Shown: in pieces, positions 1 to 63,955 of the stretch
Layout: every line of letters begins with the position of its first letter
Position numbering within the stretch: position 1 is the stretch's first letter
Assembly: GCA_035530515.1 (NCBI GenBank)
Contig: DATKUO010000238.1
Span: 23,989-87,988 of the forward strand
Length of the DNA stretch: 64,000 nt
Source of the DNA: Bacteroidales bacterium
GTDB lineage: Bacteria > Bacteroidota > Bacteroidia > Bacteroidales > VadinHA17
Reading direction: 5' to 3'
Position numbers and translations under genes: made by a program
The notes under the pieces: model-generated
What the model was told of the DNA's origin: nothing
The model's database searches: none
What the model saw: only the letters and a program-made list of their open reading frames with translations

Positions 1-1325
1 AGCTCGCCTGGGCCACAAAGCGTCGTCACTTCATCTACAATCACCGGTATCCTGTCACGAAAAAGAGGTATGGGAAGAATCACATTCCTGGCATGCAGGC
101 AATTTTGCCATCCGCCAATACCATGAAGAAGATAACCATCGGAATGCGTAACTACATTACCATTGAAATTTAAATCAACCTCGGTTGCTCCCAGTATCAT
201 AACATCCATCATACTAGTCAGGTTTCCTTTTGAATGATAGTTATAGGCATTAAAAACAGAATAGGGTATATGGTTCGGGTTATTCTCGATTGACTCTACC
301 GCTTCCAGGTCAAAAGCCTGTGCATCAAGTATAAATCCCATCTGTCCTTCCTCCAACATTTTAACCATATACTTTGTGCTACCGCCAAAACCAAATTTCG
401 ATTGCCATTCTTTATTCTTAAGTATCTCATGCACAAAAACAGCAATAGCCAGAGATGTGCCACCGGCTCCAGCTTGTATAGCTACACCATCTTTCAATAT
501 CCCGGATTTTTCAAGAAATGAAGCAGTCAATTCTGCAATTAACAGCCGGTCGGGACTTTTTGTGATCTGGATAGTACCGGATATAATTTTTTCAGGTATA
601 CCAATTTTATCAACCACCACAACATAATCAACATAGTTTCCTTCAATTTCCATTGGAAAGCAGGGAAGATCAATAAGATTATCAGTAACAACAATCACCT
701 TACTTGCATACATATAATCAGCTTTCGCATAGCCCAATACGCCACAAGCTGATATGCCTCCGGTACCTTTCGCATTTCCAAATGAATCGGCTGTTGGAGC
801 AACAAGCACAGCAATATCAATCATTACCTCGCCATCTTGTATAGCCTGAACGCGACCGCCATGTGATCTGAGAACTGCAGTGCCTTTCATCCTTCCATCT
901 GATACATACCGGCCTAGTGGACCATTCATACTACCTTCAATCCTGTTTATTGTACCATCTTCAAGGAATTTGATCACCGGATCATTGCATGGAAAAGAAG
1001 CGGAGGGGAACCATACCAGATCCTTAACTCCCATTGAGGAAGCGAGTTCAAAAATTTTATTGCTGATAAGATCACCATCTCTTAAATGATGATGAGTGGA
1101 AATTGTCATCCCATCGCCTATCCCGCACTTACGAAGAGCTTCCTTAAGCGAGCTGATAACTTTATTGCCATCTTCAGGATAATCAGAGCATGTTGGAATC
1201 GGGGGAGAATATTTTCTACCGTCAGGCCTGTGCTTGCCAACACCTTTAAAAGGGACAACAACCTTCCCATTAATCTCCAGTGGGACTGATCTGCCTGCTG
1301 CATTTATTACAGTTTTGATAGCCAT
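1..1325 (-). CDS. citF: citrate lyase alpha subunit (citrate CoA-transferase), truncated by the window edge
   Basis: Absent from the ORF track because it runs off the window. Manual translation from the ATG at 1325 (complement) gives MAIKTVINAAGRSVPLEINGKVVVPFKGVGKHRPDGRKYSPPIPTCSDYPEDGNKVISSLKEALRKCGIGDGMTISTHHHLRDGD..., a CitF-like N-terminus with the HHH-x-R-x-GD motif. It starts 17 nt downstream of citD-citE on the same strand. The + strand ORFs at 376-1289 are antisense artefacts. Confidence 0.8.
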   Translation of the reverse strand, partial: MAIKTVINAAGRSVPLEINGKVVVPFKGVGKHRPDGRKYSPPIPTCSDYPEDGNKVISSLKEALRKCGIGDGMTISTHHHLRDGDLISNKIFELASSMGVKDLVWFPSASFPCNDPVIKFLEDGTINRIEGSMNGPLGRYVSDGRMKGTAVLRSHGGRVQAIQDGEVMIDIAVLVAPTADSFGNAKGTGGISACGVLGYAKADYMYASKVIVVTDNLIDLPCFPMEIEGNYVDYVVVVDKIGIPEKIISGTIQITKSPDRLLIAELTASFLEKSGILKDGVAIQAGAGGTSLAIAVFVHEILKNKEWQSKFGFGGSTKYMVKMLEEGQMGFILDAQAFDLEAVESIENNPNHIPYSVFNAYNYHSKGNLTSMMDVMILGATEVDLNFNGNVVTHSDGYLLHGIGGWQNCLHARNVILPIPLFRDRIPVIVDEVTTLCGPGE

Positions 1326-53545: not shown

Positions 53546-56500
53546 CTAATGGTTTTTCTTTTCAAAAACAATATTATAGAGTATTCCTTCTCGTTGACTT
53601 GTATTGAACAATCTAAGATCTTCAGTAGAATCGACATCTTCCTGACTTATTATACCTTCGCTACTATCGAGCTTCCAACCATTCTTAATCCCTCCGTTCG
53701 GTCTGATAATAAGTTCAAAATTGTCCGACATTATTACTAATTCTCTCCAATGTGGAAGGAATCCTCCCTCATGAATAATAGGAACAGTACTTAAAATTGA
53801 TGTACTGGAGTCTTTTAAGAACAATTTACGTGAACCAGAGTCAATCCAATCCTTATCAATGTCATCAACATAAGCGTACCGATAGTTATTAAAGCTGGAC
53901 ATGTTGAAATTAAGTGTTTGAATATCCATATTGAGATTTTCAGAGATAGATTTTATCAGATTCAAGAGAATAAGGCAACCCAGAGCATCTTTAAGGTAAA
54001 TATCCTGGTATGTAATTTTTACTTTGCTGTTTTTAATCTTTGGAATTAATTTATCCCACATAGCTGAATCCGTTCTATAAAGAGTGTCCCAAAACTTAAC
54101 AAGTGTTGTATTCCTTTCTTTTATCTTGAATTCAAAAAGAATCTTATTCTTAGTCATTAAACTTCCCAGGTCAATATCCCAAGGTGTAAATTGCAATTGA
54201 GAAGAAAAGCGGCTTTTATAAATAGGGCTTCCACTTAAGCCCCAGTTTTCTGAGAATTCCGTGCATTCATTTTCTGAAAAATATAGAATCGATTCTTTAT
54301 TTGCATATTCTACAAGCATCAAAGAATTCAATCCCTTAGGAATAATAGAACTTATTATCTTAAACTGATATTGGCCTTTTGCCTCCATTGCTGATGCCAA
54401 TTCCCTTGCTGAAAGATCCGAGACGTCTGGTGAATTCATAGCAAAATTCACTTGTTTCCCCTGAAGTTTTAACCGATTTACAATTTCAGATAGTTTCCAG
54501 TTTTCCTGTTTCCACTCATTAATTTTATTTGAAATAAAAAAGGTTAATCTTTGTAATTCAGGATTTGCCACAACCTGAGTAATTTCGGTAAGCAGATTTG
54601 AAGTAACTCTATATGCACCGGGGAAGGATGAAGAGATTGACTCAGGCACTTCTACACGGCCTTCTTTTTCAAGTTGAAGCCACTCTATAGCTTTATTTCT
54701 ATCCAAATTATTTAAAAACCATTGTGAATCTCTGTCAATCAGGCATTTTGTACATGCTTTTTCACAAGTACAATCTAATGCTTGATATGATGAGTCTAAA
54801 ATTTCTGAAGCATAGTCAACAAAAAGGGATGAATACCCTGCACCACCTTTAGCTGTATCGTAAATAAAGACTGATGAATAGGTTGGATATTTCTTCACCC
54901 CAAAACCAATTTCCTGATTATTAATCCCAAGATACTCAGATAGCTTTCGAGATAAAATAACCCCTAAACTCCAAATGGTCTCAGGGTCGTTTATTAAATT
55001 ATTATTATTATTTCTGAACCTTAGTTCGATAAAATCAGTTTGCAACCTCCCTCCTAATAGTACATTTCTTTTAATGGCAACACCCAGGTTTTCATTGCCT
55101 GAACAAGTTCTGTTGCCTTCGCTTGCTCCTCCATTCAGTCTTTGATGGTTTTCAAGTGGATTGGGTGATCCTTCCGCACTTCCCCTTTCGAGTGAAGCTC
55201 TGCCACAATGTATACAAATTGCGTATCCAAATCCTTTTCCTTTATTATAATACAGAATTTCAGATTCATCACCACCATTACGAATCTCAATTATTGGATG
55301 CGTTCCTTCGGTATCTGAATCCCAAGGAAGCATATTTAATAAGATTGGCTCCACGAAACTTTGTGGGCCATTATTTGCTTTAATGTTTCTGGTAGGTTCA
55401 CTGAAATAGTCAACTGAAAACCCGGCGGGTTCAATCACTTCAGTAAAAGTATCACCAATAGATTGAATGCCATTCATTCCCTTATGATGACAATTAGGAC
55501 ATTCAGAATGAATACCAAAACCTAACCTAGTGAATCCACAATTTCTGCAGCTTTGTAAGATAGCCCTTCTAGAATCATTCCATTGAGATTTCATTACAAT
55601 GCCTGCGGAATCATAGCACTTTTCATTTAGTACCACCTGATTCCCAGGGGCGTATTCTGCTAATGCTCGTGTAATATTAAGTGAAGGGTTACTTTTATAT
55701 AAATTATTCTCATTCCCTTCATCAATATGATTATCAAAAACTTTAATATTAAAATCCACTATTCCGGTTGGGATTCCTGCACTTGGGATAAAGTCATTTT
55801 CTGCAAAAAAACCAAGAAGATTTTGTCCTAATAATTGTTTCCTCTGATACTTGATCGCTTTTATTTCAGGAGAGGTTTCAGAAAATCCATTCATCGCCAA
55901 TAGTCTTTCTTCAGACTCATCCAACATCATTTTCCTTGAGTTTAACCTGTTAAAAATATCCTCCAACGATGTAAGGCAAGATTTTATTGATTGCTCCAAA
56001 GTTGTCGATTCTTTAATAGTATTCTTTACAATTTTTTTATACCTATTTCGAATCTCGGAATTATCAACTGCCAAAAATTCCATCAGATATTGATGAAATA
56101 ATTCATATCTAAAAATGTTATTCTCATCCTGGTCGAAAAAGAAATTTTCAAGATTTGACTTGACATTTGCGCCCTCTATTACAGAAATATATGTTCCTAA
56201 TAAAAAAGAATTAATATGCCTTTGAATCAAAATACTACTTTCCAATTTTACAATTGGCATTGCAGTGACATGAGTCATCGCCCATTTTGGATCATTTATT
56301 ACATTAGTACCAATTGGATTTGGAGAACAAAATGTTACAGCCATTGCCTTAGATTCTGCACGCCTTCCAGCACGTCCAGCTCTTTGCAGGTAATTTGCAG
56401 GTTTAGGAGGAACATTATTCATTACTACTTCCGAAATACCTCCAATATCGACCCCCATTTCCATAGTAGTAGAGCATGATAAGATATTTATTTTGCCAAA

Positions 56501-59500
56501 ATTAAATTGCTCTTCAATTTCCTTCAAGCGACTCTTATTCTGCTGTGCGGAGTGCTCAGCGGCTAAGAAAATAGGATAGTTCAATAATATCCTTTCATTT
56601 AGGTTTGACCATAATCCAATTTCTTTTTGCCTAACTAGATTATCATCTTTCCATTTAAGGATTTCTTCATCTGAAGTGGGAATAAGATTCCTTTCCACAT
56701 CAAATTTTTGCTTATAAGCATAAGGGAAATACGGATAAGATATTTCCTCTTTAACTTTAAACCTTTCAAAATTATCTTTATTAATATTACCTTTCAAGGA
56801 CGGACTAAAACCTCTGAAGACAGTATCCATTGGGACATAAGTAACAGGGCATAGCCAGGCCTTTTCAAGCAGTTCTAGTTTCACTTTTCCGTTTTCGAAC
56901 AAGTTCAACTTATAACCTTTGTATTCTGCATTTTGATCGTTAGTTAAAGATAAAATATGAGAGGTTAAATATCTCCAGGCGCTATTTAGGATAGAATTTA
57001 TAATATCGACATTTGTATTATCAATCATTGAAATATCGGTAATATTCATTGCCGCGCAAAGAAGTAAAATTAATCGGCTTTGTCTTTCTTCTTGGACATT
57101 AAATGAAGGCCAATGCTTTACCCTATTGCCAGATCTTTCATTCGTTAAATAGCAATCTGATGCATATACATGACTGGAAAAATAGTCCTGAGTAATAAAT
57201 GGTCTAAGTTCGCTTTGGATTATGATGTGTGTATTTTCCCGCACGAAGAAATCAAGACAAATTTTTAGAAAGTCTCTCCAATCGTTAGAGCTCCATCCTA
57301 ATTTTTCAAATGACGAAGGTCTTTCACATTTTTGTAATTCCGGATAGACTATTTTAATGAATCCCATTGTTTCTGGTGAATTACCTTTTCGAGGTCTCCT
57401 CCCAAATTGATCAACAAGAAGTGCTTTTAAATAATTTTGTTTTCCTAAACCATGACTGGAAATATGGCGATATAAACTAGACAAATTCGCATTGTTATCA
57501 AGGTATTCACATAATTCACTGAGACTTATGTTTGGATTAAGGATAATTTGAGTACCAGATTTTATATTTTCAAGTTCATGCAAGCGCTTTAAGATCACTT
57601 CTATCCCGCTACTCCTTAATGGTAAAAGCTGATCATACTCTTGTTGTTCCAAAGTATCTAATTCGCGATGAAGAGTAGCTCCCTCCCTTTTTTTCCCTGC
57701 CAGGTAATGAAAGACAGCGGTTCTCATCCAATTGCGCTCAACTTCAGTATTTTGGGCCAAAGCAGATTTTGCTGTTCCTTGCCTATTATCAGTGAAGGTT
57801 ATATATTTTCTTCCATCCCATAAACTTCCTGTATTTTTGTCTGGCATAGAATCTGCCTGCTCAAGCAAAGTAGATGATAATACACGACTTAAAAACACAG
57901 TGCTGGTTCGCAAATACTTTATTTTATCAGTTCGGTTGCCACAGTGCGGGCATAAAATATTCCCACTTGTTGAATGCTGACATTCTGTAAATTCTCCATC
58001 GTGGATTATTGTTACATCATCTATATTTATACCACAAGATATAAGATTAGCTGAGTTTGAAGGAGCTGATGTTACACCTTTCGCAAGTATAATTTTAGAC
58101 CAGCTCAGGTTTTCCGTCTCATTTTGTTCTTCATTTTCTAAATCATCCTCTATAGCCAAATCAAAAAGATCTTCTTCGGTTTTTGATGGAAGTCTAAACC
58201 TTGCAGGATAAATTTCTTGCTCTCTCTCAGCAACCAATAAATGATTCCCACATAAATTACAGGATGTTAATTCTAATAGAGGGGCACCGCATTCACACAC
58301 GGTTTTCATATACGTTGTCATTGATCCAATCGCCGGGCGGTCTTCAATATGCCGTTCACAAAGAGGATTTGTACAAACGAATATTCCACCTATACTACGA
58401 ATAAAAAAATGGGCTCTAGTTGGTAATAATGCATCACTTTTGCCAGAATTTATTAAATCAGTAATTTTAATTCCTAATGAATCAATTATTTCAAGACTTT
58501 CTTCAATTGTAGCGTCAGGCTTATATCTTCTGCCAATTTCTCTGGCTGATAAAGCTGAACCCTGATTCATATCGAGTCGTAGTTTGTCAGTAATAGGGTT
58601 CGTTCTCGAAGTGTCCTTAATTTTTGGAAGCACTTGTTTTCCATTAATTACCGCAATTTCATCTAATGATTTGCCCGTAAGTTGAGCAATAAACTTTTTC
58701 AACTGGCTCTCATTATCCGAACCAATAGTGGCTGAAGTTGATGCAAATCGAACTTGGTTAACTGTCACACCGAACGCATCAAGAATCCTTCGAATCTGCA
58801 TAGAAAGTTCAGCAGCTGCAGATCCTGAGTAGGTATGTGTTTCATCCAATAATATCCAACGTAATTTACCCTGAGATTGCTTCAAAATTTCCTGATCCTT
58901 TTTTCTTACCAACATATACTCTAACATAGTTGGATTTGTAAAAAGTATTTGAGGTGTGGTTTCTCTAATAGCCTTTCTTGTAATTAATTCGGGATACGCT
59001 TCTTTTTGTTTTTGCTTTGCAATATTTTCTTCTTCAGTATTTCCATTATAAATAGCAAATGTAACTTGAGGGGATACAGCCTCACACCATGCTTTCATTC
59101 TTTTCTGCTGGCTGTTCATTAATGCATTAAGTGGGTATAGAAATATCGCTTGTACACCAGTAGTATGTCCTTCAATCTTTTGTCTAAGTAAATCTTGAAT
59201 TACAGGTATCATGAAACACTCTGTTTTTCCTGAGCCTGTGCCACTGGTAACAGCAATTGATTTTTTATTTATTAGTAATTCTTTCCAACTTTCAACTTGA
59301 TGCAGATAGGGAGCTCTCTCCTTTGGAAAGCGAAAGTCTGGATCCTTTATCTTATCTAATGACTTTATAAAATTCTCATCAAAAATATCACTAAGCTGCT
59401 CAAAAGACTTTGAAGATGCCATCCAAGGAAATGTAGCCTGAAAAACCGGTTCCGCTAATAATGGTTCCTCTTCAAGTAATTTTCTAAAATATTTCTGGTT

Positions 59501-59584
59501 GCTTTCCTGGCCCGAAGCCCACATTGAAAGAAGCGTTTCGGATAGTCGTCGCTGCGAATTTTTATAAAATTCCAAGTAATTCAT
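53546..59584 (-). CDS. giant SF2 DExH helicase with internal Zn-ribbons and a DUF1998-type (MrfA-like) Cys cluster; DruE-like candidate defence helicase
   Basis: 2012 aa. Motif I SGTGSGKT is at aa114-121 (nt 59222-59245) and motif II DETH at aa247-250 (nt 58835-58846). Motif III SAT is at aa284-286 and a motif-IV-like YITFTDNRQGTA at aa594-605. Motif V TTMEMGVDIGG is at aa1039-1049 and motif VI QRAGRAGRR at aa1067-1075 (nt 56360-56386). Cys pairs CTNPLC/CEC/CNLC/CPHC lie at aa404-548 and CRNC...CPNC at aa1346-1365. CIHC is at aa1457-1460, and the DUF1998-type cluster CTCEKACTKC at aa1605-1614 (nt 54743-54772). The C-terminal ~370 aa carry no recognisable motif. Confidence 0.75.
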   Translation of the reverse strand: MNYLEFYKNSQRRLSETLLSMWASGQESNQKYFRKLLEEEPLLAEPVFQATFPWMASSKSFEQLSDIFDENFIKSLDKIKDPDFRFPKERAPYLHQVESWKELLINKKSIAVTSGTGSGKTECFMIPVIQDLLRQKIEGHTTGVQAIFLYPLNALMNSQQKRMKAWCEAVSPQVTFAIYNGNTEEENIAKQKQKEAYPELITRKAIRETTPQILFTNPTMLEYMLVRKKDQEILKQSQGKLRWILLDETHTYSGSAAAELSMQIRRILDAFGVTVNQVRFASTSATIGSDNESQLKKFIAQLTGKSLDEIAVINGKQVLPKIKDTSRTNPITDKLRLDMNQGSALSAREIGRRYKPDATIEESLEIIDSLGIKITDLINSGKSDALLPTRAHFFIRSIGGIFVCTNPLCERHIEDRPAIGSMTTYMKTVCECGAPLLELTSCNLCGNHLLVAEREQEIYPARFRLPSKTEEDLFDLAIEDDLENEEQNETENLSWSKIILAKGVTSAPSNSANLISCGINIDDVTIIHDGEFTECQHSTSGNILCPHCGNRTDKIKYLRTSTVFLSRVLSSTLLEQADSMPDKNTGSLWDGRKYITFTDNRQGTAKSALAQNTEVERNWMRTAVFHYLAGKKREGATLHRELDTLEQQEYDQLLPLRSSGIEVILKRLHELENIKSGTQIILNPNISLSELCEYLDNNANLSSLYRHISSHGLGKQNYLKALLVDQFGRRPRKGNSPETMGFIKIVYPELQKCERPSSFEKLGWSSNDWRDFLKICLDFFVRENTHIIIQSELRPFITQDYFSSHVYASDCYLTNERSGNRVKHWPSFNVQEERQSRLILLLCAAMNITDISMIDNTNVDIINSILNSAWRYLTSHILSLTNDQNAEYKGYKLNLFENGKVKLELLEKAWLCPVTYVPMDTVFRGFSPSLKGNINKDNFERFKVKEEISYPYFPYAYKQKFDVERNLIPTSDEEILKWKDDNLVRQKEIGLWSNLNERILLNYPIFLAAEHSAQQNKSRLKEIEEQFNFGKINILSCSTTMEMGVDIGGISEVVMNNVPPKPANYLQRAGRAGRRAESKAMAVTFCSPNPIGTNVINDPKWAMTHVTAMPIVKLESSILIQRHINSFLLGTYISVIEGANVKSNLENFFFDQDENNIFRYELFHQYLMEFLAVDNSEIRNRYKKIVKNTIKESTTLEQSIKSCLTSLEDIFNRLNSRKMMLDESEERLLAMNGFSETSPEIKAIKYQRKQLLGQNLLGFFAENDFIPSAGIPTGIVDFNIKVFDNHIDEGNENNLYKSNPSLNITRALAEYAPGNQVVLNEKCYDSAGIVMKSQWNDSRRAILQSCRNCGFTRLGFGIHSECPNCHHKGMNGIQSIGDTFTEVIEPAGFSVDYFSEPTRNIKANNGPQSFVEPILLNMLPWDSDTEGTHPIIEIRNGGDESEILYYNKGKGFGYAICIHCGRASLERGSAEGSPNPLENHQRLNGGASEGNRTCSGNENLGVAIKRNVLLGGRLQTDFIELRFRNNNNNLINDPETIWSLGVILSRKLSEYLGINNQEIGFGVKKYPTYSSVFIYDTAKGGAGYSSLFVDYASEILDSSYQALDCTCEKACTKCLIDRDSQWFLNNLDRNKAIEWLQLEKEGRVEVPESISSSFPGAYRVTSNLLTEITQVVANPELQRLTFFISNKINEWKQENWKLSEIVNRLKLQGKQVNFAMNSPDVSDLSARELASAMEAKGQYQFKIISSIIPKGLNSLMLVEYANKESILYFSENECTEFSENWGLSGSPIYKSRFSSQLQFTPWDIDLGSLMTKNKILFEFKIKERNTTLVKFWDTLYRTDSAMWDKLIPKIKNSKVKITYQDIYLKDALGCLILLNLIKSISENLNMDIQTLNFNMSSFNNYRYAYVDDIDKDWIDSGSRKLFLKDSSTSILSTVPIIHEGGFLPHWRELVIMSDNFELIIRPNGGIKNGWKLDSSEGIISQEDVDSTEDLRLFNTSQREGILYNIVFEKKNH

Positions 59585-59605: not shown

Positions 59606-62600
59606 TTATTTCTGAAGAATTCTTTTAACCATGCATAATAGTATTTCAGCATATTCTGAAGGCAAGAATTGCCGGTAGAAATTTATGGTGCGGCGCATTT
59701 TCACATTTTCATCATTCCAAATTGTATCGTCTTTCCCTGTCATGGCTAAAGCTGATTTTACTGGAGAGATCAGTAATCCCCTCACATAAACTGGTAATTC
59801 AGCATTCATTGCTTGGGGGAATAAATCTTTCCATTCATTGGGAATAAAAACTAAATATTCTGGTAAATTACTATTCCCACCCAGTTTCTCTCTTATATTT
59901 TGAATCTTTATCTGAGATGGAGCAGGTACAATTTGATTAATAAGGACTTCATTATTTTCCAATAAGTTCAGTAATTCACCTGTCTCTGCATTAAGCGTAT
60001 AATTCATAAATGCTTTTTTCCATTCAAAGCTGCTAATTAGAAATCCATTTTTCATTGAATCTGGCATTCTTTCTAACAACCAATCTATTGCCTCAATCCA
60101 ATCTCCTTCCTTTATCCAGTGCCATGCAACTGCAAGTTCATTTTCGAACCTGGTTATGCCTTGCAATAAATTATCCTTATTGACATTTTGGCTTTGCCAT
60201 AAAAGATATGTCATTTTCACCATTAGTATAGGAGATAAAGAAATTGCGCGAAAGCAATTCAATGTTTTAAAAGGAAGTGAATAATTGATAACAATATTAT
60301 AATACTCAATTACTTTTCTCCATTCTTCCGAAATCTGGAAATTGTCTTCAAATGCAGGACTTTTTTCCAATGACTCATTAATTTCAATAATATTCTTTTC
60401 TTGTGGACTCAAACCACTATTATCATAAAATTCAATGTCAATTTTTTCAGATGAAAAATCAAAATAACGAGGCACCACTTGTTCATCTGCAGTTTTATCA
60501 GAGAATATAATAAACTTCTTTAAAGAAGTTCCTTCTTTTAAATTATAACTTTCACCGGAGTTTTTTCCCATCTCCTCTACAATTATTTCATCGCTTGAGC
60601 ATCCAACTGCAATTCCATATAATTTCTCTTTGTAATCTATAATATTATTGTCTTCATAATTATCGACAATAAAAATTGAATTCTTTTCATCATCTTTTTT
60701 CGTAAACAAATTGAATTCTTTAATGAAAACTACTTTATTGCCAATTTTAACCATTACTTGAGATTCTTTGTCAAATGGATCAGAATCATAAAGTAGAAAC
60801 ATTTCACGAATGTTATCTTCAAATCGACTTAACGAATGTATTCCTTGTACAAGCTGCCCCGAAATTCTTACCTTAAGGTTCTTGTAGTGTGAGACTCTCG
60901 TATCTGCATTTTGCCCCATCACAACAAATCTATAACCATACAGTGAAGATCTGCAAAGGACATGATTATTTTCGATTTCAATTCCCTGAGAATTCAAAAG
61001 AACAATTCCGCTAAAAGGTGATGCAACTGTAATTTCTAAAAATGGAGTATTTGCCTGGTTTAATTTAGGAAAAAGTCGAAATTTTGTAATCTCCGGATAT
61101 TGTATTAGATCACTCTTGCGAGATACTCTCCAAATATTCTTATCAAGACTTTCAATTACTAATCCTTGTTGATCTGAAACAGGAAAAATATCACCGCCTG
61201 ACCATTCCCACTTTATAACTCCAGATTTTTGTGTCAGATTTTGGAAATTGCAATCTAAATCTCCCGTGTAATAAAATTTTTCTTTGAAGAATTTTTTATC
61301 TGGAAACTCTATCTTGAATTCCAGCAAACCAATTGGAAGGTTTTTACCATCATATTTTTTCCATTCGCGATCTCTAAATTCCCGGAAATGAACATTACTC
61401 GCTGGTACTCTTATATGCGATTCATTGTACAAACGAATATCCGGTTTGGAAATAAGAATTTTAAAATTTGCATTTTGAACCCAATCTATTGACCAACCTG
61501 CAAACTCACATGTGTAGGAAGTTAAAGTATCATCAAATATAATTTCCTCCTCAGTTAGAGTATTTGTGAGCGTGATTGAGTCACAAAATGCAATCCAGTT
61601 AAGTGTTATTTCTGAAAGATAAACTTCTGAAGTTGATCCCACTGTACTCCAATCAAGAGGAAGAATTACCGCATTATTATTTGAATTAGAAGTTCCTGAT
61701 TTAAAAAACCAAAAGCCTTCGTTTTCGACTAATAATTGTGGGGTTTCAAAGTCAGGAACAAAACTATTAGGAGCAGTTATATCAACGATTTGGTTATTAT
61801 CTTTTTTTAATTGAAGGGAAATTACTGGTTCTCCCTTCCATTTAAAATTCATAAATTTTGATTCTCTCAAAATAAAATCACCATTAATAGATCGGATATA
61901 AGTTGCGACATATTGATTTTGTACATATAATGAAAATGAGTTGCAATCTTCTAATTGATGTTCTTCCTTATAGGAATAAGGAATTTTTTTAGCAAGCTCA
62001 ATATTATATGACAATTGCAGATTTTCTTCTAATTTGAAAATTTTCCACCTCACAGTAAAAGGTGCAGAGTGTGAAATTTCTGAGTTAGAACTTTCTTTCA
62101 GATCTTTTGTTAATTCTTTCCATTTACCTTCTTGGGCATCATATGGTAGTAAATCATCATTTTTCTCATAGATAGCTCGTGCGATTAGTAAACTTAGCTC
62201 ATATATACCTTCATTTTTAAAAGATAAAGGCAAATAATTTGTACAAGGTAAATTCTCAATGAAACTACTATCATTCCAATTAATATTTACATTTTCTGTA
62301 TGCTGAATAAGGCCTTTAAGGAATGTTTTATATACGATTATATTCTCACTATTACCCTGAATATGATTCATAGGCAAGCCACCTTGTATTAATAGGGATC
62401 GAAACCATAATCGGTTTCGACGGACAATTACAGGTATTCTTAACCGTCTACCTCCTATTTTTGCTAATTGATATAATTCCTCTGCATAATAATTACTCAA
62501 ACCTAACGATGATGAAATTGCTTCCTTACTGGTTCTTCCCCCATTATATTCTCTTCTCCACCACTCAGAGTAATACAAGGCAGCTTCATTAGCAAGTTTT

Positions 62601-62719
62601 TGATTATTTGGATAATTTATAGAAATAAATGCATCATGCAATTCCTTTTTTAATACATCATATTGTTCTTGAGTAATTTTCATTTTCCACAAAGGGATTT
62701 GCCATACTATATTTTCCAT
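59606..62719 (-). CDS. large (1037 aa) protein of unknown function, translationally linked partner of the helicase; DruH-like by position and size only
   Basis: Uninterrupted ORF ending 21 nt before the helicase ATG on the same strand. No P-loop, nuclease, methylase or Zn motif was recognised by eye. The Trp-rich N- and C-terminal regions look alpha-helical and the middle looks beta-rich. Confidence 0.6.
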   Translation of the reverse strand: MENIVWQIPLWKMKITQEQYDVLKKELHDAFISINYPNNQKLANEAALYYSEWWRREYNGGRTSKEAISSSLGLSNYYAEELYQLAKIGGRRLRIPVIVRRNRLWFRSLLIQGGLPMNHIQGNSENIIVYKTFLKGLIQHTENVNINWNDSSFIENLPCTNYLPLSFKNEGIYELSLLIARAIYEKNDDLLPYDAQEGKWKELTKDLKESSNSEISHSAPFTVRWKIFKLEENLQLSYNIELAKKIPYSYKEEHQLEDCNSFSLYVQNQYVATYIRSINGDFILRESKFMNFKWKGEPVISLQLKKDNNQIVDITAPNSFVPDFETPQLLVENEGFWFFKSGTSNSNNNAVILPLDWSTVGSTSEVYLSEITLNWIAFCDSITLTNTLTEEEIIFDDTLTSYTCEFAGWSIDWVQNANFKILISKPDIRLYNESHIRVPASNVHFREFRDREWKKYDGKNLPIGLLEFKIEFPDKKFFKEKFYYTGDLDCNFQNLTQKSGVIKWEWSGGDIFPVSDQQGLVIESLDKNIWRVSRKSDLIQYPEITKFRLFPKLNQANTPFLEITVASPFSGIVLLNSQGIEIENNHVLCRSSLYGYRFVVMGQNADTRVSHYKNLKVRISGQLVQGIHSLSRFEDNIREMFLLYDSDPFDKESQVMVKIGNKVVFIKEFNLFTKKDDEKNSIFIVDNYEDNNIIDYKEKLYGIAVGCSSDEIIVEEMGKNSGESYNLKEGTSLKKFIIFSDKTADEQVVPRYFDFSSEKIDIEFYDNSGLSPQEKNIIEINESLEKSPAFEDNFQISEEWRKVIEYYNIVINYSLPFKTLNCFRAISLSPILMVKMTYLLWQSQNVNKDNLLQGITRFENELAVAWHWIKEGDWIEAIDWLLERMPDSMKNGFLISSFEWKKAFMNYTLNAETGELLNLLENNEVLINQIVPAPSQIKIQNIREKLGGNSNLPEYLVFIPNEWKDLFPQAMNAELPVYVRGLLISPVKSALAMTGKDDTIWNDENVKMRRTINFYRQFLPSEYAEILLCMVKRILQK

Positions 62720-62902: not shown

Positions 62903-63955
62903 TCAATCGGATTTCATATAATACAATTCAATATACCATTTTATCCAGTTATTGAGCATTTTATCACCTGATCTACCTGCAGAATTTATTATATCAGATG
63001 ATTTAAATGATGAGAATTTTGGATTATTATCAATCAGATCCTTATATCTACTTATTGAACCTTCTAAAGCATCATTACCTGGATGATGAACCACAGAGAA
63101 ACTAACATTTTTATATAACCCTTCATTTTCAAGTGCAAAACCCAACAATTGATTACGCCATAACTGATTCATCCCTCCTTGAAACGGGCATGGTCCCTCT
63201 TTTTTATAATTTACATAAAAAGATTTATTAGCCTCAGTGATTTCCCAATAATTGAATTTTCTAACATCATGATAATAACATAGTTTTTTGTCCATCAGAA
63301 TATCAGAAAATGATTTCTCGCAAAGATGTATTTTATCATCTCGATTGTCACTCTTATATCCACCACATTGTGTAAATTCTTTTTCAGTGAGTTTATGTTC
63401 TATCAACCACAAGCAAAGCTCATTATCATTGTTATAATATGCTATTGCAATGTCTGAATCGGTACCCGACCTTGCTGAGTGGTCGCCTAACAATCCTTTT
63501 TCATAGGAGGAATTACCATCCCAAAACTCTATTCGGAATCCTTTGTAAAATTGATCTGTAGCCAGACTTTGAAAATCAGATTTAAGTTCACGAATAATTT
63601 CATTGACTTTAGGATTTAACAGGATCGGTAAAAACAGGTTTACATTAGCTGCCTGGGAGCTAACCATATGATTGAAATGCTGATGAAGTTTGAAAGGAAA
63701 TTTTTCTTTATGCGATAATAAGTCTGATAAAATGGGAGGATAGATCAATGGGTACTTTGTGTGAACTGACTCAGGCAAAATTGCATCATATTTATATTCT
63801 CGAGTAATGCCTTTTACTTTCTCTGTATAAATACCCTCCTCCCTTGTAATATTCTTCCATTTCCAGTTAATCAAATGCACATACAATTTTTTCTGAAACT
63901 CGCTGAGCGATTCAGGTAGTTTATATTTAATCCCATCTAGTATCTCTTCTTTCAT
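62903..63955 (-). CDS. PD-(D/E)xK restriction-endonuclease-like protein
   Basis: 350 aa. The candidate catalytic core is ...GTDSDIAIAYY(x13)LWLIEHKL... (D166/D168 ... E186-x-K188; nt 63392-63460), preceded by RIEFWD (E143). The HFNHMVSSQAANVNLFLPIL block is typical of restriction-enzyme-like families. It sits 183 nt upstream of the 1037-aa gene on the same strand. Confidence 0.55.
   Translation of the reverse strand: MKEEILDGIKYKLPESLSEFQKKLYVHLINWKWKNITREEGIYTEKVKGITREYKYDAILPESVHTKYPLIYPPILSDLLSHKEKFPFKLHQHFNHMVSSQAANVNLFLPILLNPKVNEIIRELKSDFQSLATDQFYKGFRIEFWDGNSSYEKGLLGDHSARSGTDSDIAIAYYNNDNELCLWLIEHKLTEKEFTQCGGYKSDNRDDKIHLCEKSFSDILMDKKLCYYHDVRKFNYWEITEANKSFYVNYKKEGPCPFQGGMNQLWRNQLLGFALENEGLYKNVSFSVVHHPGNDALEGSISRYKDLIDNNPKFSSFKSSDIINSAGRSGDKMLNNWIKWYIELYYMKSD

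Follow-up and report, generated by a model that had tools for sequence, protein, structure and literature searches.

The closest described relatives of the protein considered here are the DruE helicases of type III-A Druantia, a two-gene anti-phage system (druH-druE). Structures are available for DruE of E. coli EDL933 (PDB 9TU7-9TUC; bioRxiv 10.64898/2026.05.13.724758; also Hu et al., 10.64898/2026.05.12.722862), and the P. aeruginosa DruE-DruH pair has been described by Loeff, Chanez and Jinek (10.64898/2026.05.13.724313). In the E. coli and P. aeruginosa proteins, a Zn-binding block and an insertion in RecA2 form a duplex-entry platform, and a helical sub-domain serves in dimerisation and in binding to DruH. 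The small domain that follows RecA1 has been published as a WH, five-helix or BrxA-like domain. Subtype III-A is defined by two C-terminal PLD-like domains, and published work disagrees on the role of this pair, the two views being an ATP-coupled nuclease and an accessory module. Bell et al. (2025; PMC12458937) describe the RecA2 insertion as common to the whole ARMADA/BRIGADE/TALON/Druantia branch and as lacking in MrfA and Lhr.

A druE gene and its druH neighbour

The window, by which we mean the whole 64,000-nucleotide stretch of Bacteroidales DNA that was analysed, carries on its reverse strand an ORF (53546-59584) encoding a 2012-residue SF2 helicase. The protein is a member of the DruE family: the PADLOC model DruE3 (PDLC00036) matches residues 1-2009 over profile positions 3-2022 of 2023 (2178.6 bits, E=0). 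The DruH3 model (PDLC00045) likewise covers the upstream gene almost completely (residues 4-1037 against profile positions 25-1065 of 1065; 424.5 bits, E=2.2e-127), which identifies this neighbour as DruH and the pair as a two-gene type III Druantia system. DruH found no match in the PDB by sequence, so it is much more diverged than DruE. We are highly confident that this ORF encodes DruE of a type III-A system, with the layout that is standard for its family (Table 1). More than 2285 homologues were found, the best 120 of which are 1934-2059 residues long, with a query coverage of 95-100% in nearly every case; a layout that recurs in more than 2000 related proteins of about 2000 residues is not due to chance. 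The window's DruE is a diverged, low-GC orthologue.

Comparison with the solved structures places the domains in detail. PDB 9TU7 matches query residues 29-1806 (E=2.5e-216) and is the E. coli DruE monomer, as judged from the paper's data statement and from a numbering offset that stays at +4 for the Walker A motif, DEAH and the MZB cysteines. Residue signatures picked out neither the exact EDL933 nor the P. aeruginosa DruE among the proteins retrieved. Another E. coli DruE (P0271), which blastn against E. coli genomes supplied for use in their place, aligns with 31% identity over 1802 columns, with no break across the Zn block or the insert. With EDL933 DruE the window's protein shares the domain order from end to end, the RecA2 insertion and an adjacent druH, together with the Walker A, DExH and QRAGRAGR motifs, the FTDxRQGTA strand, the Cys patterns of the Zn block (a block with two Zn motifs in the E. 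coli protein), the CxCx3CxxC pattern of the MZB domain and a tandem PLD-like tail with YxDxY and HxR. The window's protein is about 90 residues shorter, its dimerisation sub-domain has about 60 residues in place of 82, and gaps in the 9TU7 alignment are more frequent there and in the Zn block; it has DETH where E. coli has DEAH, DIY where E. coli has DRY, and W1622 at the place of the E. coli clamp residue H1698. P. aeruginosa DruE shares the INS and Stalk elements embedded in RecA2, the Cys-rich Zn motifs and a C-terminal pair of PLD-like domains whose pocket includes HxR.

An earlier note on this DNA, made from the sequence, had called the layout unusual. The end-to-end DruE3 match and the continuous alignments to both E. 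coli proteins make it instead the family standard, and the observation behind that note is correct but ordinary, its parts being normal, published components of type III-A DruE. The window's DruE is a new member of a known and structurally characterised family. The appropriate label for the locus is druH-druE (Druantia III-A), which has little import beyond correct annotation; for each of three regions formerly left unassigned there is a name in the literature, a homologous structure that has been solved, and a role tested in characterised homologues.

Table 1. Domains of the window's DruE and the partner gene; positions are those of the window.
Feature	Residues	Position	Strand	Basis
N-terminal region and RecA1	1-320	58625..59584	-	Pfam DEAD 95-290, E=7.6e-23; aligns to 9TU7 43-339
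Small helical domain after RecA1 (approximate boundaries)	~321-385	58430..58624	-	9TU7 alignment and published domain order
Double Zn-binding domain (dZBD/ZBM_L)	~386-585	57830..58429	-	Aligns to 9TU7 392-722 and second E. coli DruE
First RecA2 strand and long exiting helix	~586-630	57695..57829	-	AF2 model, conserved FTDxRQGTA
Helical dimerisation sub-domain (DD, PD or Stalk)	~631-695	57500..57694	-	AF2 helices, 9TU7 alignment gap
Duplex-binding / Cap / INS domain within RecA2	~696-1003	56576..57499	-	Aligns to 9TU7 780-1085
Second half of RecA2, motifs V-VI	1004-1107	56264..56575	-	Pfam Helicase_C 1006-1075, Foldseek RecA2 matches
Extended winged-helix, OB fold with two Zn motifs, connector	1108-1543	54956..56263	-	9TU7 alignment
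MZB/DUF1998 Zn-binding domain	1544-1646	54647..54955	-	Pfam PF09369, E=1.8e-11, residues 1544-1615
First PLD-like domain (PLD1)	1647-1829	54098..54646	-	Diverse profile, AF2, Foldseek
Second PLD-like domain (PLD2)	1830-2012	53549..54097	-	Diverse profile, AF2, Foldseek, conservation
druH partner gene	1037 aa	59606..62719	-	21 nt upstream of druE, co-oriented

The Zn block and the interrupted RecA2 domain

The motifs listed by the earlier note all sit in the 2012-residue ORF where it had put them: CTNPLC at 404-409, CEC at 430-432, CNLC at 442-445, CPHC at 545-548, YITFTDNRQ at 594-602, HSA at 1011-1013, TTMEMGVDIG at 1039-1048 and QRAGRAGRR at 1067-1075; its nucleotide range for residues 400-550 (57935-58387) is also correct. 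RecA1 carries the Walker A motif GSGKT at 117-121 and DETH at 247-250. All eight cysteines of the Zn block (C404/C409, C430/C432, C442/C445 and C545/C548) are invariant in seven close homologues, and we infer which of them would ligate which zinc. Run on the Cys block alone, Pfam (E<=10) gave sub-threshold Zn-ribbon matches only. The block also holds an acidic 'lock'-like loop at about 465-490.

RecA2 is interrupted just as had been described. Its first strand, YITFTDNRQGTA (residues 594-605), has F597, D599 and R601 invariant in 13 diverse homologues and is kept as FTDxRQGTA in E. coli DruE; the AF2 model shows a strand at 594-598 running into a helix at 601-635, followed by a helical bundle, a folded region at 700-1000 and then the remaining RecA2 strands. 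The Pfam Helicase_C match corresponds to profile positions 40-109 of 110, so the first RecA2 strand is missing at that place, and among PDB chains the canonical SF2 helicases (Lhr, MrfA, DEAD-box) align in RecA2 only from about residue 1004. Of the two parts of the insertion, the helical one (helices at 644-659, 662-676 and 688-695) is the least conserved and occupies the gap between two stretches aligned to 9TU7, matching the published DD at 678-759; going by the papers on other DruE proteins, it would mediate dimerisation here also. The larger part belongs to an aligned stretch with E=5e-55 that reaches 9TU7 residue 1175, and its AF2 pLDDT is mostly above 90.

Pfam found no match in residues 610-1005 even at E<=10, and Foldseek of the insert model against a PDB library to April 2026 (apparently predating 9TU7) matched only RecA2, with nothing for the insert of about 400 residues; the 'MarR-like' label given by Bell et al. 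(PMC12458937) gains nothing from this result. The insertion had been thought to be of unknown function, a description that no longer applies, because the literature describes it as a duplex-binding/Cap domain together with a helical dimerisation/Stalk domain. The accompanying guess that such regions carry system-specific function is borne out by E. coli and P. aeruginosa DruE, in which they provide the duplex-entry platform, dimerisation and DruH binding. The note had also raised the prospect that the insertion is standard in all DruE/MrfA-type helicases, which holds for type III DruE and fails for MrfA and Lhr.

Downstream of RecA2, residues 1108-1543 were aligned inside the 696-1806 stretch to 9TU7, and their domain names follow the published papers; the OB fold contains the Zn motifs C1346/C1349/C1362/C1365 and C1457/C1460/C1494. 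The MZB/DUF1998 cysteines read C1605-x-C1607-x3-C1611-x2-C1614 (E. coli C1681/C1683/C1687/C1690). The window's DruE would be expected to share the functions of its characterised homologues. By homology to E. coli and P. aeruginosa DruE, its RecA core would translocate 3'->5' along ssDNA, the Zn and inserted domains would together form a channel on which the duplex rests and splits, the helical sub-domain would build the homodimer and contact DruH, and an OB/MZB 'lid' would close over the tracking strand, with the PLD-like pair acting as an ATP-coupled nuclease or as an accessory module.

The C-terminal PLD-like pair

The last 370 or so residues, which had been left unassigned, are the published tandem PLD-like pair. 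A 24-sequence profile of diverse homologues (A3) matches 9TU7 1736-2051, the PLD1/PLD2 region, with E=1.3e-14 and with the YSDRY and HxR motifs lined up, and phmmer aligns PLD1 to 9TU7 1730-1892. The AF2 model of the module is confident (pLDDT 90.8, pTM 0.85), and all 47 of its Foldseek matches with E<=1e-3 are PLD-superfamily proteins. The profile match and the exclusively PLD fold matches together establish that the tail is a tandem PLD-like module and not part of DUF1998, as the earlier note had proposed in treating the two as separate. Its fold class is that of PLD, PLD3, Tdp1, polyphosphate kinase C-domains, vaccinia F13 and the SauUSI nuclease domain. Matches to two-domain enzymes of the superfamily reach probabilities of 0.9-1.0 and E-values down to 7.5e-7, but at 7-12% identity and with TM-scores of only 0.21-0.28, indicating that the geometry of the domain pair differs from that of classical PLD enzymes. 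In place of the canonical HxK(x)4D(x)6G(G/S)xN, the tail reads H1945-W-R-E-L-V-I-M, with Arg for Lys and no Asp at +7, within an H-x-R ... IRP(D/N)GG..GW motif, and PLD1 lacks any His motif. The likeness to canonical PLD/HKD enzymes is at the level of fold only.

Conservation counted over 167 C-termini shows that the module is under strong purifying selection: H1945 and R1947 of the HxR motif are 100% conserved, and D1861, Y1863, R1919, R1961, P1962, G1965 and W1970 are 89-99% conserved and all kept in the window's protein. PLD1 has the nearly invariant W1691 and W1781, and S1685 where the family consensus is Asp; PLD2 has Y-x-D1861-I-Y against the consensus YSDRY, and IRPNGGIKNGW at 1960-1970. 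At nine conserved positions the family consensus is D-D-R-Y-R-H-R-R-D, whereas the window's clade (its protein and about ten close relatives) reads S-D-I-Y-R-H-R-R-N. The three departures, Asp to Ser1685, Arg to Ile1862 and Asp to Asn1963, change stepwise along the lineage and are a small lineage-specific point.

Two of these positions bear on the published disagreement. In P. aeruginosa DruE, D1740A and R1918A abolish defence (Loeff et al., 10.64898/2026.05.13.724313), and S1685 and I1862 appear to correspond to these essential residues in a mapping based on motif identity (DRY, HxR) and spacing. By the same mapping, H1945, R1947 and D1861 would be what the window's protein keeps of the pocket residues reported as essential (D1740, D1917 and R1918; also H1999 and R2001). 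With substitutions at positions that P. aeruginosa DruE reportedly requires for catalysis, the tail of this lineage may have a structural, regulatory or nucleotide-binding role and not be a nuclease. In keeping with such a tail, E. coli DruE could do without its PLD domains in the work of two groups, neither of which saw nuclease activity; two other groups reported DruE nuclease activity dependent on the PLD-like region, the strong selection on the module also counts against it, and the correspondence to the P. aeruginosa residues depends on motif and spacing. On balance we regard a non-nuclease tail as a real possibility, while leaning somewhat the other way. This reading concerns one domain and is compatible with the protein being DruE. 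Still more tentatively, and only if the two positions truly equal D1740 and R1918, the clade might be a natural 'nuclease-pocket variant', which we think rather doubtful; if true, it could help to decide between a nuclease and an accessory or regulatory role for the DruE tail. For comparative use, the truly invariant tail residues across the family are H1945, R1947, D1861, W1691, W1781 and W1970, and the window's orthologue shows which residues mutated in Pseudomonas DruE lack conservation.

The earlier note had suggested that the tail could be an effector or sensor domain, and a lineage-specific module unrelated to characterised DruE was at first suggested by empty searches: residues 1640-2012 have no Pfam match even at E<=10, and neither the tail alone nor a 7-sequence profile gave a meaningful PDB match by sequence. 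That idea was dropped once the diverse profile matched 9TU7. The tail has diverged so far from that of EDL933 DruE that only a family profile connects them, and the link to 9TU7 needs a diverse one. A search of 1.84 billion representatives found the module confined to the C-terminus of DruE-like proteins of about 2000 residues or their fragments (241 matches), in homologues across the family and including proteobacterial-type proteins of about 2100 residues. Given the match to PLD1/PLD2, the PLD-only fold matches and this family-wide distribution, an unrelated effector or sensor is extremely improbable.

Relation to other YprA-family helicases

The window's DruE belongs to the broad MrfA/YprA family, in a defence branch with extra domains. 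Assignment to another class of that branch (ARMADA, BRIGADE, TALON, Druantia I/II/IV or III-B) could appeal to the ZBM and RecA2 insertion that these classes share (Bell et al., PMC12458937) and to matches of the ORF to DruE1 (540 bits), DruE2 (280 bits) and DruE4 (253 bits), but it has a negligible chance of being correct, since those matches are far lower than the end-to-end DruE3 match and each broken into four separate stretches, the neighbouring gene is DruH3, and the tandem PLD-like tail is a III-A hallmark that III-B lacks and that is replaced by Vsr-like tails in types I/II. B. subtilis MrfA/YprA (6ZNP, E=3e-17) and mycobacterial Lhr (5V9X) share the SF2 RecA1/RecA2 core with III-A DruE, and MrfA also has the OB-connector-MZB/DUF1998 canopy; both are without the Zn block, the RecA2 insertion and the PLD-like tail, and align at RecA1 and then from about residue 1004 only. 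PDB 9WAE, a 1970-residue 'Helicase', is a weak match to the window's DruE.

Layout and family identity of the helicase

The minus-strand ORF under study encodes a protein in which every motif listed by the earlier note is present in the translation at the place described (see the table). Pfam recognises nothing in aa 610-1005 or aa 1640-2012, even with E<=10, and the canonical SF2 helicases of the PDB (Lhr, MrfA and DEAD-box proteins) can be aligned only over RecA1 and beyond ~aa 1004. Based upon these Pfam and PDB alignment boundaries, the layout described there is therefore accurate: ~400 residues split RecA2, a Cys-rich block precedes them, and ~370 residues follow DUF1998. The protein is nonetheless an uncharacterised new addition to a known family, and these three regions are family-standard. 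The note's interpretation of them is only partly borne out. Its residues 1-2009 match positions 3-2022 of the 2023 in PADLOC model PDLC00036 (DruE, type III Druantia) with 2178.6 bits; the DruE models of types I, II and IV give only piecemeal and far weaker matches.

More than 2285 homologues are found with E <1e-20, with named sources in Bacteroides, Segatella and Prevotella. The top 120 have lengths of 1934-2059 aa and, with few exceptions, span 95-100% of the query; the whole architecture is therefore conserved, tail included. Homologues P0004-P0123 all carry a precomputed match to PF27116.1, potentially a new Pfam family specific to DruE.

Features of the druH-druE region of the window, with two E. 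coli Druantia loci
Feature	Position	Strand	Details
druE ORF	53546-59584	(-)	2012 aa
DEAD	aa 95-290	(-)	Pfam
Cys motifs of Zn block	aa 404-409, 430-432, 442-445, 545-548	(-)	CTNPLC, CEC, CNLC, CPHC; scan of translation
YITFTDNRQ	aa 594-602	(-)	scan of translation
Helicase_C	aa 1006-1075 only	(-)	Pfam; profile positions 40-109 of 110 only
HSA	aa 1011-1013	(-)	scan of translation
TTMEMGVDIG	aa 1039-1048	(-)	scan of translation
QRAGRAGRR	aa 1067-1075	(-)	scan of translation
MZB/DUF1998	aa 1544-1615	(-)	Pfam
W1622	54719-54721	(-)	place of clamp residue
PLD-like tail	53549-54646	(-)	aa 1647-2012
DruH, type III	59606-62719	(-)	1037 aa; PADLOC full-length match, E=2.2e-127
PD-(D/E)xK protein	62903-63955	(-)	350 aa; Pfam REase-ARP, PDDEXK_13
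E. coli Druantia locus L001	L001 1356-11003		NZ_CP100530.1
E. coli Druantia locus L002	L002 4681-11025		NZ_CP020545.1

The zinc-binding block, the RecA2 insertion and the MZB clamp

The top PDB match is 9TU7 (E=2.5e-216, query residues 29-1806 aligned), a monomer of E. coli EDL933 DruE (paper 'A compact Druantia defense...', bioRxiv 10.64898/2026.05.13.724758; here the 9TU7 paper), whose chain numbering runs 4 ahead of the native one, as seen from the Walker A and DEAH motifs and the MZB cysteines. Query residues 349-671, which span the Zn block and the first RecA2 strand, align with chain residues 392-722, and residues 696-1107, which span the insert and the second RecA2 half, align with 780-1175 (E=5e-55). 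Across the same two regions the alignment to a second E. coli DruE, from the yjiT locus of strain LH10-b-1, is unbroken (31% identity over 1802 columns). In an AlphaFold2 model of aa 560-1106 (pLDDT 81), a strand at 594-598 is followed by long helices between 601 and 676, aa 700-1000 are confidently folded (pLDDT mostly >90), and RecA2 strands return at 1008-1011 and 1034-1038. The insert itself found no Foldseek match in the PDB (to April 2026), where the matches were to RecA2 domains only, over 100-150 columns.

These regions have been described under several names. Bell et al. 2025 (PMC12458937) reported a beta-barrel Zn-binding module opening RecA2 and a second inserted domain; Hu et al. 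2026 (bioRxiv 10.64898/2026.05.12.722862) named ZBM_L, with two Zn motifs, and a Cap domain, whose protruding four-helix bundle cannot be deleted without abolishing dimerisation and defence. The 9TU7 paper distinguishes dZBD, DBD and DD, and assigns the duplex entry channel to dZBD and DBD, with a dZBD 'lock' loop. Loeff et al. (bioRxiv 10.64898/2026.05.13.724313) describe INS and Stalk, embedded in the RecA2 domain, with the Stalk mediating dimerisation and forming the DruH interface. The Zn block and insertion, which had been called unusual, are thus standard for the family, with solved homologues and with roles tested in orthologues. The suggestion that they serve target recognition or partner binding was right but not new, since experiments on orthologues had already established it (Hu et al., the 9TU7 paper and Loeff et al.).

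PDB 9WAE, a 1970-aa 'Helicase' chain for which we found no paper, gives a weak match (E=3e-22) that covers RecA1, the Zn motif, motifs V-VI and the OB region. With ~540 aa separating its Zn motif from motif V, this chain probably represents a further YprA-family defence helicase that carries a comparable insertion in RecA2.

Beyond the insertion, W1622 occupies the place of the E. coli DruE MZB 'clamp' residue H1698, which stacks on a tracking-strand base. All seven of the closest homologues share this tryptophan.

The C-terminal PLD-like tail

Searches with aa 1640-2012, as a single sequence or as a 7-sequence profile, gave no PDB match; when phmmer was anchored with the MZB domain, the alignment extended to 9TU7 residue 1892. 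When the 7-sequence profile was run with HMMER against 1.84 billion representatives, 241 proteins were returned; the module occurs only at the C-terminal end of DruE-like proteins of ~2000 aa, or in fragments. A 24-sequence alignment drawn from these (16-25% identity to the query, save two close relatives at 60% and 38%) yielded a profile that matches 9TU7 residues 1736-2051 (E=1.3e-14), with YSDRY and HxR in register. The AlphaFold2 model of the module (pLDDT 90.8, pTM 0.85) retrieved by Foldseek only PLD-superfamily structures with E<=1e-3 (47/47: PLD, PLD3, Tdp1, polyphosphate kinase, F13, phosphatidylserine synthase and SauUSI), at low TM-scores of 0.21-0.28. Taken together, the profile match, model and Foldseek results identify the tail as the defining tandem PLD-like pair of subtype III-A. 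It is therefore separate from DUF1998, as the earlier note held, and no longer unassigned, being a match to a published pair. The tail lacks the canonical HxK(x)4D motif, a point also made by Hu et al. 2026.

Conservation was computed over 167 C-termini. H1945 and R1947 are invariant; D1861, W1691, W1781, P1962, G1965 and W1970 are 98-99% conserved, R1961 91% and R1919 89%. At nine conserved positions the clade of the window reads S-D-I-Y-R-H-R-R-N vs the family consensus D-D-R-Y-R-H-R-R-D. The three substitutions, S1685 (consensus Asp, 50%), I1862 (Arg of the 'DRY' motif, 62%) and N1963 (Asp, 88%), were acquired stepwise along the lineage. In Pseudomonas aeruginosa (Pa) DruE, D1740A, D1917A and R1918A each abolish defence (Loeff et al.). 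The Pa residues lie at -259, -82 and -81 from the invariant His and their putative counterparts here at -260, -84 and -83; DRY and HxR are unique landmarks, and motifs and spacing make S1685 and I1862 the probable equivalents of D1740 and R1918.

The published work on this tail is divided. Two groups (Hu et al. 2026 and the 9TU7 paper) found the PLD domains dispensable and saw no nuclease activity, whereas two groups, Loeff et al. among them, report a nuclease role for DruE. Given this disagreement and the clade substitutions, the orthologue described here may be mildly informative on the dispute, but no more.

The druH-druE module and related loci

With the druH ORF 21 nt upstream of druE, the locus forms a two-gene druH-druE module. 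Downstream lie housekeeping genes, which encode an aminotransferase, a LytTR response regulator, HU and an AI-2E transporter. DruH is diverging far faster than DruE. The DruH of the window has a strong PADLOC match to a single DruH3 model only, and none at the sequence level in the PDB copy searched. A structure of E. coli DruH, 9TUD, is reported as deposited.

On the same strand, 183 nt upstream of druH, is a PD-(D/E)xK protein with no PADLOC match, which may be part of another defence gene set extending past the window end.

A type III Druantia pair of E. coli consists of yjiT (1096 aa) and a 2114-aa DEAD/DEAH helicase, and sits next to mcrBC and hsd, within the immigration control region. 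Strain ZJ3920 has an internal stop in the helicase gene, which is annotated there as a pseudogene. Of 5426 complete E. coli genomes, 285 carry the helicase gene as found with the window's conserved motif V-VI DNA.
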